A stretch of DNA of 62,829 nt, counting the filler, from Basidiobolus ranarum (lineage: Eukaryota), in assembly GCA_040143965.1 (NCBI GenBank). It is 19 parts of 19 records of this genome, joined end to end, with 100 filler letters (N's around TTAATTAATTAA, not from the genome) between each part and the next. Parts side by side here need not be neighbours in the genome. Positions count along the whole stretch, not along the records: positions 6,645 to 9,865 come from JASJQH010009515.1; 18 more parts are not named here. The stretch is one strand, 5' to 3'. Shown one piece after another: positions 4,615-59,527 of the stretch. Made by a program: the position numbers and the translations under genes. The stretch's first letter is position 1, and the number at the start of each line of letters is the position of its first letter. Under the pieces are notes generated by a model that searched no databases, was not told the origin of the DNA, and worked only from the letters and a program-made list of their open reading frames with translations.

Positions 4615-5225
4615 TTATTCCTTCTTTCCATAAGCTTCATGGAAAGCTTGGGGAAGGGGGTTGGGTGTTTGCTTATATTCAAGTACTTCACCGCGTTCTT
4701 CCATTCTACGTTCTGCTTCACGATAAGCCCAGTTTACAAAACTAAAATGTAGGAGAAAGGTCACATTTAGAATATGAAAAGAAAAAATTCGAGTTCACTA
4801 TTGATACTATGTATGAGAAAGCAAATATTTACCTAGAGTCAGGTTTGTAGTAGAGACCAACTGCGGCGAAAAGGAAACCACCGTACATACCAAAGTACCA
4901 AATGTCTTCCCAGTCTTCTTTAACTCTCTTTTGACCAGCAGCGAGTGGCTATGTAGGGTAAGTAAAAAAAAGAAAAAGTTCCGATTTTAGTTGGGGATTT
5001 TCGAAAAGATATTTGAAGTTTTCTGTGTTAACAACAATAGTTTTCTTGAAGCCAAACAAGGAAGATAATAAAGTGAATATTTCAACAAGTTAAAGTATAT
5101 ACCTTTTCGTTGAAAAGATAACCCCCGGGCTCATTATATTGCGGTCCGTGACCACCTCTGGTGAGACGGGCTCTAACGTTATTACGAAGTGGAGATCTCA
5201 GGAAACAACGAGAAATGGCTGACAT
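4615..5225 (-). CDS. NDUFB11: NADH:ubiquinone oxidoreductase ESSS subunit (NDUFB11-like), 3 exons
   Basis: Mitochondrial-type presequence, then YNEPGGYLFNEKP..GQKRVKEDWE, a TM helix, and YKPDSSFVNWAYREAERRME. Introns are GT-AG. Confidence 0.85.
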
Positions 5226-6644: not shown

Positions 6645-8291
6645 CATTATTTGACGGTCGAGTTTTTCAAGCGCTTCGGGTTTGGATTCCTGCTGTAGGC
6701 GAAGTTTAGAGCAAGCCTCATCAATCAAATCAATGGCTTTATCGGGGAGGAAACGATCGGTAATGTAACGATGAGACTGAATAGCGGCAGCGACGATAGC
6801 AGCGTCCGAGATACGGACACCATGGTGGACTTCATAGCGTTCTTTGAGACCACGCAGAATAGAAATGGTGTCTTGAACAGTAGGCTCATTCACCATGACT
6901 TGTTGGAAACGTCGGGCCAAAGCGGGGTCTTGCATAATGTATTTGCGGTATTCATCAATTGGAGTAGCGCCGCCACATCGGAGTTGGCCACGTGCAAGAG
7001 CGGGCTTGAGAAGGTTGCTAGCATCCATGGCACCTTCTGATTTACCAAGACCAAGGAGGGTGTGGATCTCATCGACAAAGAGAATAATTTTACCTTCTGA
7101 TTCGGAGACTTCTTTAAGAACACCTTTAAGACGATCTTCAAATTCACCGCTATGTATGTGTGTGAGAGAACGTATATATTGCACTAAACAATAAGGCGGA
7201 TAGGTTTACTTACCGATATTTAGCACCAGCCACAAGAGCCTGGCATAAGATAAAAAAGTATGTTTTAGTCAGATTACTATTCAAAAAAGGTTTGCATGTG
7301 TATTTTACTTACACCCAAGTCCAAAGCAATTACTCTTTTGCCCTGAATGGATTCTGGAACTTCATTTGCTACAATACGTTGAGCAAGTCCCTGTCAAAAC
7401 GTTAATTTTTTTCTCAGAAAAGCAAAACTTGCATGAATTTATTAACTTACTTCAGCAATAGCAGTTTTACCAACACTGTTCGTTTGAAAAAGCAAGGTTT
7501 GGTTATTGAACAAGCTGTTGAACGTTTGATATAGATCTTACCCTGCTTCACCGATCAATACTGGATTGTTCTTAGTACGACGAGCCAAACTGTTGATTGT
7601 GACGTAATGTGAGTGAAATATAACTTTACTTCGAATGTCAACAACTTACACTGAAATAAAGAGGTAGAAATATCAGTCATTCTTATTCTTTCATAACAGT
7701 TGCAATTAAATTAAGTTACCTTCAAGAGTTCTTCTGATCTCTTCATCGCGACCAATAACCGGGTCTATAGTCAAATGAGTTAATGACGTTCTTGTGTTTG
7801 TTGTAACCGCGACTTACCTAACTTTCCCTTCTCTGCCATGGCAGTAAGATCGATACCCTGCAAATGCATTTGAGTAAGTATTTTCTTGGCCTTTCATAAA
7901 TACATTTCGGGTAAACACTGTACTTACAAATTGCTCGAGCGGTTTTTGCTGCTCCTGTTCTTGGTTAGGATTCAATCTGAAGCCCTGACCACCTTGACCA
8001 GGCGTGCCGCCTAAACACGTATACATATGTGTGTCAATGGCAAGCTACGTAAGCATACACAATCGAACCTTAATTACCATTATAGAGCCTTTTCGATACA
8101 TAGTACAGATTTGCAAGCTTCCAGTTCTGCCGTTGATATTTCAGAGCAGTAGCCATCAACAAGCTCTTGCTAGCTGTGACAGGTTTGACATGAGCGAGCC
8201 CTGATGTTGTCGTTGTCCAATGATGACGCAATTGACTGGACAGTTGCTTTCTCGTGTTGACGTTCAAAGTCTTCTGTGATATTCTCAACAT
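6645..8291 (-). CDS. HSP78: Mitochondrial ClpB/Hsp78 disaggregase, 5' part; exons 8291-8078, 8010-7928, 7857-7818, 7764-7720, 7650, 7589-7542, 7475-7451, 7390-7313, 7239-7214, 7149-6645
   Basis: The presequence leads directly into NBD1 with no N-domain: [20 protein letters not shown], Walker A GEAGVGKT, Walker [23 protein letters not shown]. Confidence 0.93.
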
Positions 8292-8355
8292 GCTATTAAT
8301 AAAGAGAAGAAGCAAAAAAAAGCAGCTTATAAATGTCGCGAGGAGTAATCAGCGG

Positions 8356-8380
8356 TGACTCAACCGAGAACATTCGAGAT
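8356..8380. promoter_or_regulatory. Candidate heat-shock element (GAAcaTTCgaGAT) and adjacent TGACTCA site upstream of Hsp78
   Basis: nGAAnnTTCn with an imperfect third unit, about 80 bp upstream of the ATG of a heat-shock gene. Confidence 0.4.
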
Positions 8381-8819
8381 TTTGACTTTTTCAAACAGCA
8401 AATCAACAGTCACTTTGTCTTTATTTCTGCTTTTGGAAACAGTCGAAATCACCAGATCTCTTATTAAAAACCATATATATCTTGTTTAGCATAGTTAATA
8501 TTTCGTAAGCCAAAATCGTCACATATTTTGGATATATTTGACAAATATCAAAAATGCTCAGAAAAGATAGAAATTTTCAAACTTGTCGAAAACTCCCCAA
8601 ATCTTTACCCCAACTCTCTGAACACCGTAGAAACATATCTCTGCTGCTACTTCTTCTATATACAGCATAAGTATAATTTCTGGAATATCAATTTCATTAA
8701 ACAACGAGTCAAGACTCATATTTCTTCCAGTCATCCTGGGCACTTCCACTTCATCCCAAAAGCTTGCAACAAATCCCACCACAGGAAATCACATTCTAAA
8801 TTTGAAACAGTGATATAAG

Positions 8820-9158
8820 TGTTGAAATTATCATTGCCTAAACACCTATATAGTCATATATAGCTTAGTACTTGGTTATCTCATATTTCACTAAGATATT
8901 ATCCATTATTCTCAATCGGAATATACTTAGAATATTTTTACCCACTTAGAAGTTCTCAGATATATAGATTTTTCAAAGAAGCCCCAAACTTTGCACACAT
9001 GTTCCTGGGACCTTCCTTAAGACATTCTACATGTTAGTTTGTTTACATCTTGACAAAACTATAAATGTCAACTGAATACTCAATAAATTAATAAGTGAAA
9101 ACTACCAATTCCTCTAATTCTCCAAACCACTTCCAACAGGCTCCCAAATATTTTAATA
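8820..9158 (+). mobile_element. Solo LTR, copia family A (about 340 bp, starts TGTTGAAATT); other full or partial copies at about 9215-9534(-, old), 9634-9865(+), 10158-10504(-), 18577-18925(-), 37326-37447(+), 43436-43720(-), 50195-50441(+)
   Basis: Repeated sequence. It is flanked by a PPT at 10505-10513 and by a PBS at 18563-18576 and 37448-37460. Confidence 0.9.
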
Positions 9159-9965
9159 GTAACTAGCTTTTAGGACCATATTCAAGCTCAAACAAGTCAT
9201 TTTCTGCTGAATTATTGTGGGCATTAGTTTGAAGTGGTTTGCAGAACTAAAAGAATTGGCAATTCTGACTTACTGATATATTGAGAAAATATTGATGTTT
9301 GTAGTTTTGTGAAACAATCACATATCATGTGCTACAGATGGTCCCAGAAGCATGTTTGCAAAAGCTACAACTTCTAGGATAGCTTTGAATAATCTACATA
9401 TTGGAGAACATTTACTTTAGTAGAAATATTTTGACTTCCCATTAAAATAGTGGATAATATCTTAAGGAAAGTGGAGTAATGAAATACTAATCCATAGAGG
9501 ACTATGTACAACTCAGCCTACATTAGTTTCATCACCCACCCTCCACCAAAAAGTCAATACACTAACCCTAAGCAATTTCTAAGTATCTCAAATATTTGCC
9601 TACCCAATAGTTTGGTTAGTATATTGCTAACTGTGTTGAAATTAGCATTGCCTAAACACCTATAGTCATATATAGCTTAGTACTTAGTAATCTTATAATT
9701 CACTAAGATATTATCAATTATTTGCAAGCGGAATTTACTTAGAATATTTTTACTAACTTAGAAGTTCTCAACTATTTAGATTTTTCAAAATTGTGCTAGA
9801 AGCCCCAAACTTTGCACACATGTTCCTGGGACCTCCCTTAACACATTCTACACATTAGTCTGCTTNNNNNNNNNNNNNNNNNNNNNNNNNNNNNNNNNNN
9901 NNNNNNNNNTTAATTAATTAANNNNNNNNNNNNNNNNNNNNNNNNNNNNNNNNNNNNNNNNNNNN

Positions 9966-38028: not shown

Positions 38029-39699
38029 TGTTGTGCACCAATATAAAAAGTTTTTTAACTTACACCATACCTATACAAAAGGCTTGAATATAAGCTTAGT
38101 TTATCATCGTTGCTAGCTAGTCACCTGACCTTATCCAGGGACCCTATCATGTGACATATTATATTACTAACTATCCATTCTCTTATCTCTTCTATTAGAT
38201 CTAATCAGTATCAACATCTGAGTTATCTGCCTAGACAGAAGTCAATTTGAGTCACAAGATTCTTAACCAATGATCTTTCACTGCTAAGACTTCAGCTGAT
38301 GCATGACTTACAGATCTATCTATCAATCTATTCAATTGTATTTTCTTTTATCAGAATTTGGCATCTAATATCTATGTACTGACTAATTCACTTTGCTTAC
38401 AAAAAGTATAAATAAAGCTAACTGAACCTTTTAGCTCAGTGTGTGTCCTAACAAATATAGGATCTTAACACTTCTCAATGTTTCTCAACAAATTCAATAT
38501 TTGCCCTAGTTTCTATTCAAGCCTAGTATCCACTAGCACCTACAGAACACCAAGTCTAGCTGCCTAGCAAACCTACTCTGTACCATAACTGCTATTGGAT
38601 CAGTAAAGTTCAAGACTTTTTATCCACTTTTCTCTTGGACACAACATTTTTTTTGTTGAATTCCATTACATTCAACCACCAACCCAACATGGCCTCACCT
38701 ACCAGTACTGTAAGCCTCAACATTCTTGATGATGCCAGAGCAGCCTATGAAAACATATCCCAACAACTTAGGCAACTTATGTCTGAGAAAGATGCACATG
38801 TTTTGGAGTACACTTCCCTTCTTCAATCAAGAGCTGATGAAGAGCAAAGACAAGACCTACAGGAAGTCATTGCTTCTGAAAAGGAAGAAATCACCATTCT
38901 TAAGGAGAGTCTCCAAGATCTTGCCAAAACAATTCTCAACATGGAGAATCCTCCAAACTTCACCCTATTTTCATGAAGAACCACTCTTACATCTGCTGCA
39001 ATTAATCCTACTGGCATCCCTAGAGCAAGTAGAGCCATTGTTCCTAAGTCCTTGCCACCCTGTGCAGAAGGACACAAAGCCATCGAAGATCCCACTAAGT
39101 TTCTTGACAAATTCACCAACATCTTAGTTGCTCACCAACTAGATACAGACACCAACTGGGCAGGAATACTACCACTTTGTCTCACCAAGCAAGATGCTAC
39201 CTAGGTAGAATGCAACATACCAGCTACCAGTTCCTGGAAAGATGCCCAAGACCACTTTTGCAAGCACTTGGATAATCCTCTCAAGAGAGCTCATCTACAC
39301 TATGATCTTTGGAGAATTAGAATACAAAAGGGAGAAACTGTTCAACATTTCTGCAACAGATTTCAAAGACATATGGAAGAAGCTGGAGTGCAAGACTCTG
39401 ACCCTACACTCACTGCCTAGTTTTGCTCCAATTTCAATACCACTCTGCAGAACAACCTGGAAATAATTAAAGCTGCAAATCTAACACATAGCTATGATAA
39501 GGTTCCAGAAGTTGCCATGCTTGCTGCTAGAAGTAATACTACTTACTCTTCTCACCACCACCCTTATCAATCAAGTTCCCAAAATGCTGATTCCGCTAGT
39601 AATAGCTCAAGTGCAAAGTACTGCCACCTATGGAAAAGGTTCCCCTACTACCAATGATTGTAGAACTTTAGCCAACCAAGCAAACAAGTCAAACTCAAC
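38029..39699 (+). mobile_element. Gypsy-like element 5' part: probable LTR/leader (TG start, TATAAATA about 38407) and decayed gag
   Basis: Coiled coil, then EDPTKFLDKF...SWKDAQDHF...IQKGETVQHFCNRF (retrotransposon gag pattern). Confidence 0.7.
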
Positions 39700-58908: not shown

Positions 58909-59527
58909 CCCTAACAAAAATAAAATCGATTTGAACCGGATTGGATCCACCCTCCTAAATAGCAAAACTGTCAGAGAACTGTCACAATATTGTTGGCTTG
59001 CATTCTGCCAGGGATTTTGATGATGTGACAGCAGTTTCTGATATTATCTTAATGGTATTCATATATGTTAAAACATTGATACTCAAATTTGGTATGCCTT
59101 ATTCAATATCCAGCAATTTTTGAAAAAATAAAATTTTTGAAAGGCAAATTACTGGGTTTACTGCTTTAGGAATTTGAATTAGTATGCATACCATTATTTA
59201 GATATTTTAGGCTTTGTATTCCAGCCATAATGAGAATCAAAAAATACAAGAATCTTGCAGTGTTTAGTCTCTACATATGCACATATTTGACTGATTAGAC
59301 ATAACTCAATAACATCAATATGCTTTACCAGCAAACTAACGGTGTAAAAATTGCTAAACATCTGAAACTTTGAATAGCACCAACACTTGGCAAAAAGCTG
59401 ACTCTTGTTACTGTTCACAATAAGAATAAGCTTTCCTAAAAGTACCATCAGATTATCACACAAGCAAATTAGTATGATTATAAAGGTACTTACTCTGTGT
59501 CTGTGGATTGGGCTTTGTTGCTGTTAT
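58909..59527 (-). mobile_element. Right end of another CMC copy inserted in the transposase
   Basis: Starts CCCTAACAAAAATAAAATCGAT. Confidence 0.9.

Follow-up and report, generated by a model that had tools for sequence, protein, structure and literature searches.

The stretch of DNA analysed here (the window, positions 1-62829) comes from an assembly labelled Basidiobolus ranarum and consists of 19 separate contigs of 3222 to 3202 nt, ordered by falling size and with a GC content of 33-46%, that are joined by spacers of 44 N + TTAATTAATTAA + 44 N; genes on either side of a spacer are therefore not genomic neighbours. One of these contigs (window 6645-9865, 3221 nt) carries on its minus strand the first part of a gene for Hsp78, a mitochondrial chaperone of the ClpB type, and within a single valine codon of this gene the sequence points to an exon of only one nucleotide, the T at position 7650.

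Placement of the exons was guided by relatives' proteins, and the model that includes the one-nucleotide exon comprises 10 exons and 9 introns, with an open frame of 355 codons (Table 1). Introns 1-9 measure 67, 70, 53, 69, 60, 66, 60, 73 and 64 nt, all are GT-AG, and GTAAG stands at seven of the nine donors, with GTAATT and GTAACT at the remaining two. The gene is a ClpB-type Hsp78. The window sequence is 93-95% identical to Mucorales proteins named Hsp78, and its large exon (6645-7148) matches Pfam AAA_lid_9 (E = 2.4e-33) and, more weakly, Pfam AAA (E = 9e-4, just under its cut-off). The Walker A motif (GxxGxGKT) appears in the spliced model as GEAGVGKT, which together with the AAA lid identifies the first domain of a class-1 AAA+ protein. 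The contig stops at 6645 inside this first AAA+ module; in P0018, a close relative of full length, AAA_2 and ClpB_D2-small are present. The sole database protein with 100% identity is P0001 (382 aa, from a 3221-nt contig), which NCBI lists as a hypothetical protein of Basidiobolus ranarum, and this public model matches Escherichia coli ClpB (4d2q) with E = 3.2e-106.

Table 1. Features of the Hsp78 gene fragment, in window coordinates
Feature	Position	Strand	Details
Hsp78 (ClpB-type, mitochondrial) gene fragment	6645..8291	-	ATG at 8291; truncated by contig end at 6645
Hsp78 exons 1-5 (spliced model)	8291-8078, 8010-7928, 7857-7818, 7764-7720, 7650	-	
Hsp78 exons 6-10 (spliced model)	7589-7542, 7475-7451, 7390-7313, 7239-7214, 7149-6645	-	
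Exon 4, 45 nt	7720..7764	-	last base G (7720) would be base 1 of the Val codon; phase-1 end
Intron 4, 69 nt	7651..7719	-	donor AAG/GTAACT (weak at +5); CTGAT branch-like motif; acceptor TTTATTTCAG/
Proposed 1-nt exon, T	7650..7650	-	would be base 2 of the Val codon G-T-T
Intron 5, 60 nt	7590..7649	-	consensus donor T/GTAAGT; CTCAC branch-like motif; acceptor AATCAACAG/ without pyrimidine tract
Exon 6, 48 nt	7542..7589	-	first base T (7589) would be base 3 of the Val codon; phase-2 start
Alternative acceptor AG (TGTAAG/TT)	7645..7646	-	used by P0001; 75-nt intron, 18-residue in-frame insertion
Intron 6, 66 nt	7476..7541	-	partly translated in P0001

The original prediction had read this gap from the sequence alone, and all the bases that it named are there: read along the minus strand, ACT CTT GAA G (7720)/GTAACT closes the upstream exon, the gap contains TTTATTTCAG/T (7650)/GTAAGT in its middle, and AACAG (7590)/ is followed from 7589 by T TTG GCT CGT CGT ACT AAG AAC AAT CCA. 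The gap splits, as had been proposed, into 69 nt (7719-7651) and 60 nt (7649-7590), and the two branch-like motifs, CTGAT and CTCAC, each stand about 25 nt ahead of their acceptor. The consequences drawn for the reading frame also held. A direct join of 7720 to 7589 is one base short and shifts the frame, with a stop 12 codons on, at codon 139, and translation that continues past the T (7650) into the second intron yields GTG and directly afterwards TAA.

Splice solutions for the interval were enumerated with GT or GC donors, AG acceptors, one or two introns per solution, each 40 nt or longer, and an open frame downstream. Twelve canonical, in-frame, stop-free solutions were obtained, and only one of them, the removal of 7719-7651 and 7649-7590, yields the conserved protein with neither insertion nor deletion, in agreement with the earlier claim that inclusion of the T gives Val and restores conservation. 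The resulting 355-residue product is gapless at the site when compared with 19 homologues chosen for having an intact site, and the sole position at which it departs from a residue common to at least 18 of these 19 lies in the motif GATT, where Pro replaces Thr. Exon 6 takes up the Val codon at its third base and runs through to the GG of the Walker A glycine.

The sizes and strengths of the sites fit the same solution. Introns of 69 and 60 nt fall within the 53-73 nt range of the gene's other seven, whereas a single intron of 130 nt would be about twice as long. Of the two pairs of sites, the inner one (TTTATTTCAG and GTAAGT) is the stronger, the outer one being GTAACT and AATCAACAG, and the pyrimidine tract of intron 4 is the best in the gene. 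The string AGNGTAAGT occurs four times in the window, counting both strands, against 1.96 expected from shuffles, and arithmetic from the shuffle counts puts at about 2 in 10,000 the chance that AG-T-GTAAGT would split a given 130-nt stretch into two viable introns.

Based on the data presented above and on the comparison with relatives described below, it is probable (we estimate about 0.83) that the T (7650) forms a genuine, constitutive exon of one nucleotide in nuclear Hsp78. The lone T would serve both as the base after an acceptor (TTTCAG/) and as the base before a consensus donor (/GTAAGT), supplying the middle base between the G of exon 4 and the third Val base carried by exon 6. The two introns, 69 and 60 nt long and thus in the size class that spliceosomes of fungi recognise whole, would each be treated as one unit; such intron definition is the natural mode given that both match the gene's other introns in size. 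Since simultaneous occupation of a U1 site and a 3' splice site separated by a single base is implausible, the introns would be removed in turn, and removal in either order would regenerate a usable site. Use of the inner pair should be favoured over removal of the whole 130 nt because the inner sites are stronger than the outer ones, and skipping of the T would join G to TTTGG and lead to a stop 12 codons on. Both the presence of the T in the mRNA of this organism and the order of splicing are matters that we infer from the genomic sequence.

In the public Hsp78 models of other genomes, gene predictors stumble at the same codon in a group-specific manner. We surveyed 120 proteins obtained by homologue search, with the taxon grouping assigned from protein names. 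An intact Val is present in 15 of 47 Mucorales models (30 are broken at the Val codon and 2 begin later), in none of 3 from Umbelopsidales (2 broken at the Val codon, 1 beginning later), in 0 of 1 from Endogonales, and in none of 16 from Glomeromycotina, all 16 of which break at the Val codon. Among Mortierellomycotina, 29 of 30 models have it intact, the lone exception being broken upstream of the Val codon, as do all 4 from Zoopagomycota, all 3 chytrid or blastoclad models, and 10 of 15 unnamed proteins. The failures are of several kinds: Val-to-Gly replacement, insertions, deletion of V-L, skipping or frameshift of the next exon, truncation to an intronic ATG, and splitting into two genes. 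The Val-to-Gly form, printed RT[LI][EQ]G-L[AS]RR, accounts for 9 of the 120 models (8 Mucorales, 1 Glomeromycotina). Public Hsp78 models are evidently wrong at the Val codon in most Mucorales and in all 16 sampled Glomeromycotina.

The residues left at the breakpoints carry information on intron phase, which we examined in 227 protein ids (P0001-P0222 together with P0227, P0229, P0230, P0247 and P0316). The motif upstream of the Val is present in 171 of these, and 68 of the 171 are not intact. In every one of the 68, the residue that follows the motif is one of five (G in 32, V in 18, A in 12, E in 3 and D in 3); since these five are the only residues with G-initial codons, all 68 would have an upstream exon that closes in phase 1 on a G. 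The other side of the gap can be read from models that start at an intronic ATG and continue into L[AS]RR. Thirteen of these 14 have R or S (AGN) ahead of the Leu, as expected where the AG of a phase-2 acceptor directly precedes base 3 of the Val codon, and the 14th (MFELV-LARR) fits ...TTAG with the T read into a spliced second intron. Two models are naked direct joins with the frameshift that such a join gives in the window, P0035 of Cunninghamella echinulata (VWPEEQKIIL) and P0247 of Rhizopus microsporus (AWLDVQRTTQY).

Models that end at most 6 residues past the motif are also informative. Six of these seven end exactly in RT[LI][EQ]V-stop, namely three from Rhizophagus irregularis (130 aa), one from R. 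clarus (129 aa), one from Mucor hiemalis (120 aa) and one from Absidia cylindrospora (122 aa), and this ending fits G+T+G followed by TAA after removal of the first intron, as in the window. The seventh, from M. velutinosus, ends EGKA-stop, its Gly being what read-through of the donor would give. The C-terminal partners of such models begin in the second intron and lie next to them, as judged from accessions or locus tags that follow one another or from a contig of equal size. Adjacent two-gene splits at the Val codon in public annotations comprise P0211-P0214, P0087/P0221, P0190/P0227, P0041/P0316 and P0178/P0229, and the species with two-gene splits are Rhizophagus irregularis, R. clarus, Mucor hiemalis, Absidia cylindrospora and M. 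velutinosus.

Two unnamed proteins bear on the mature message, as their contigs are too short to contain the introns. P0018 has 828 aa on a 2627-nt contig and P0039 has 801 aa on a 3315-nt contig; both read RT[LI]EVLARR, and P0039 is 96% identical to a model from Lichtheimia corymbifera. The mRNA of close relatives evidently carries the Val codon in a plain open frame. Given that both outer splice sites are flanked by G, a shifted outer site could give only Gly, and the T of the Val would therefore have to come from inside the gap. A search for Rhizophagus transcripts returned no intronless Rhizophagus sequence, only models. Taken together, the structure appears to be inherited and common to Mucoromycotina and Glomeromycotina.

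The contig itself was placed by phylogeny. In a FastTree phylogeny of 81 rows (83 of the 120 hits were hand-picked across all groups, and 2 were dropped for want of the anchor motif), the Hsp78 of the window falls within a Mucoraceae-like clade of 25 rows with a support of 99, its nearest relative being Parasitella at 95% identity. The contig thus behaves as a Mucoralean sequence, and this nesting suggests that a Mucoralean contig is present in an assembly labelled B. ranarum.

A number of points weigh against the one-nucleotide exon or its conservation. The Hsp78 contig is a 3.2-kb fragment from a highly fragmented assembly, the internal donor has a T at its -1 position and not the preferred G, and the sensor-1 motif GATT is changed in the window to GATP (CCA; about 6920-6935, codons 246-250), with Thr in all 19 homologues. 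The argument from conservation rests on the failures of predictors in models and not on aligned DNA, and the broken models share species, strains and pipelines and so are not independent. Fifteen Mucorales models are intact, and those genomes might have either the one-nucleotide exon or a simpler structure; the scheme does not account in detail for some models, among them P0077 (Circinella) and P0155 (the chytrid Spizellomyces). A metagenome scan with a 168-residue exon gave at least 80 loci, and among the matches listed all were 67-74% identical, below the roughly 82% of Mortierellomycotina models. An acceptor-specific degenerate pattern matched 4 stretches in genome contigs, all bacterial or non-homologous, and had no matches in viral contigs. 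As to the GATP change, it may be a sequence error or a mark of a damaged allele, and it leaves the assignment of orthology unaffected. Next to GATP, the C[VI]G motif reads CGG in the window, a change that may have the same origin.

That the copy is decaying, either as a pseudogene or as the damaged allele of a contaminant, with the missing base being a frameshift mutation, would accommodate the Pro at the invariant Thr of GATT, the truncation of the gene by the contig end, and a terminal branch of 0.041 for the window sequence against a median of 0.011 in the tree. This is very unlikely, given that the 355 codons are otherwise open, that all nine introns keep GT-AG and typical lengths, that just one position is off the residue common to at least 18 of the 19 homologues, and that the identical offset in relatives marks an ancestral structure and not a new lesion. 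The missing base could also be an artefact of assembly, in which a T has been dropped from the TTTT run at 7586-7589, so that a single 130-nt intron (7719-7590) would suffice. The small size of the contig (3221 nt), the very fragmented assembly and the unusual Thr-to-Pro change at an invariant site speak for such an error. Independently sequenced relatives, however, show the identical one-base phase offset in their models, as seen in the frameshifted joins of P0035 and P0247, the 9 of 120 models with V-to-G and the G-initial codons in 68 of 68, which makes a homopolymer under-call unlikely; moreover, the intron required would be some two times as long as the others (53-73 nt), and a consensus acceptor-T-donor would have come to lie in mid-gap by a chance of some 2 in 10,000. 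We rate this error slightly below even the decaying copy in probability.

The public annotation offers a different way through the gap. P0001 starts with exons identical to those of the spliced model and then takes the acceptor TGTAAG/ at 7645, which the original prediction had overlooked and after which what remains of the second intron can be read in frame with no stop. If this 75-nt intron (7719-7645) were correct, Hsp78 would have an 18-residue insertion ahead of the Walker A strand; the intron is canonical GT-AG, its frame is open and the model has been deposited. Alignment of P0001 with E. coli ClpB (4d2q), on the other hand, leaves exactly two gaps, corresponding to insertions of 18 and 13 residues. 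The first is pure gap, and an insertion at this site is found in 0 of 103 intact models from relatives; the second is the translation of part of intron 6 (7476-7541) in the middle of the Walker A motif, which shows that the model is unreliable elsewhere too. In addition, the acceptor TGTAAG lacks a pyrimidine tract and overlaps a perfect donor, and by our own estimate a 19-codon open frame is unremarkable in AT-rich DNA. P0001 is a predictor's workaround, not a protein, and that the annotation is right is scarcely plausible. Equally hard to credit is a rescue of the frame without any additional exon, by a non-canonical shift of one site by a base (giving GGT, Gly) or by ribosomal frameshifting. 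Gly is indeed printed in 9 of 120 models, as a one-base shift would give, but the intronless P0018 and P0039 read Val, the position is Val or Ile in 103 of 103 intact models by regular expression, and, with G flanking both outer sites, no shift yields the T of the Val. Two further candidates were considered and rejected: a stwintron or recursive site, with 7719-7590 removed in one or two steps and the T not kept, leaves a frameshift, so that one base must stay; and a U12 or AT-AC intron does not agree with two introns that are both GT-AG.

One-nucleotide exons are known from other organisms, and the original description of them as very rarely reported needs updating, since there are now three papers, two of them on fungi. 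The exon in Arabidopsis thaliana APC11 was proven with cDNA and mutant minigenes, and its authors argue for intron definition with the introns removed in turn (Guo and Liu 2015, PMC4674806). Like the proposed Hsp78 exon, it is constitutive, flanked by AG and GT, essential for the frame and overlooked by the reference annotation; it differs in being a lone A in a 422-nt stretch of a plant gene, with one long intron, and in having been proven experimentally (PMC4674806). The Hsp78 introns are about 60-70 nt, and the exon between them is proposed from the sequence. The second case, in the Fusarium P450 CYP621A, is documented by SRA reads in two species and was presented by its authors as the second example overall and the first in fungi (Nelson and Syed 2026, PMC12940212). 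It resembles the proposed Hsp78 exon in that a phase-1 boundary meets a phase-2 boundary in a conserved motif, that what looks like one intron is roughly double the ordinary size (139 nt in CYP621A, where the median is 56), and that the lone base is the middle of a conserved codon (PMC12940212). In CYP621A this base is conserved among orthologues, and it was found by manual curation where predictors fail (PMC12940212). CYP621A differs in being an ascomycete P450 with AG-G-GT, in Fusarium/Nectria only (PMC12940212). Hsp78 has AG-T-GT and is a housekeeping chaperone, here from fungi that branched off early, and its exon seems to be spread over far more taxa. Finally, a long-read annotation of Coprinopsis cinerea contains 13 one-nucleotide exons in 13 genes; this is likewise a fungus with short introns in which omission of the exons breaks the frame, but it is a basidiomycete (PMC12230235). 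A full-text literature search found no report of a one-nucleotide exon in Hsp78 or in Mucoromycota. With such exons already known from Arabidopsis, Fusarium and Coprinopsis, Hsp78 would add a further case, probably an ancient one.

In recursive splice sites (AG/GT, zero-length exons) and fungal stwintrons, acceptor and donor abut and the intervening sequence is removed in two steps, leaving no nucleotide behind. Hsp78 shares with them an acceptor and a donor that lie close together within one apparent long intron, and differs in that one base, essential for the frame, would be kept in the mRNA. Both are mentioned in the discussion of the APC11 paper (PMC4674806).

Whether the exon predates the split of Mucoromycotina and Glomeromycotina, has been kept since, and is the hidden reason why Hsp78 is split or damaged in the annotation of most public genomes of these fungi is a proposition to which we give roughly even odds. 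The two lineages diverged hundreds of millions of years ago by fungal time scales. If the proposition is true, this would be the oldest and most widespread one-nucleotide exon known, and the damaged models would include reference annotations of Rhizophagus irregularis; a one-base exon would have been stably inherited across two fungal subphyla, should the comparative inference hold, and a documented case would reside in a conserved housekeeping chaperone and not in a lineage-restricted gene. Orthologue sets and phylogenomic alignments built on the wrong public models inherit their error. The short, well-defined flanking introns would make this a convenient locus for studying how the spliceosome copes when a single base separates acceptor from donor. 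A bolder and less likely notion is that, since skipping of the T gives an early stop, splicing at the site could switch the output of this heat-shock gene.

An RNA structure bridging the splice sites is not supported: the fold of the 151-nt region is not better than that of its shuffled versions (z = +1.09), 170 of 200 of which fold as well. Elsewhere in the window, further matches to AG-N-GTAAGT lie at 4955-4963 (+), 39541-39549 (-) and 59488-59496 (-), the one at 4955 being antisense to an apparent minus-strand exon. Among the relatives, P0155 (Spizellomyces sp.) and P0145 (Calcarisporiella) have an insertion at the Val site that begins with V and ends with R ahead of LSRR, and in P0155 it opens V-S, as if from GTAAGT, which hints at an intron at or near the Val codon beyond Mucoromycota. 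We also noticed that the exons of the Hsp78 gene between 7214 and 7857 are very small (40, 45, 1, 48, 25, 78 and 26 nt) and lie in the 5' third of the gene. In P0009, from a Rhizopus-like genomic contig, the remainder of the gene is a single open frame of 676 aa, indicating that the introns are crowded toward the 5' end.

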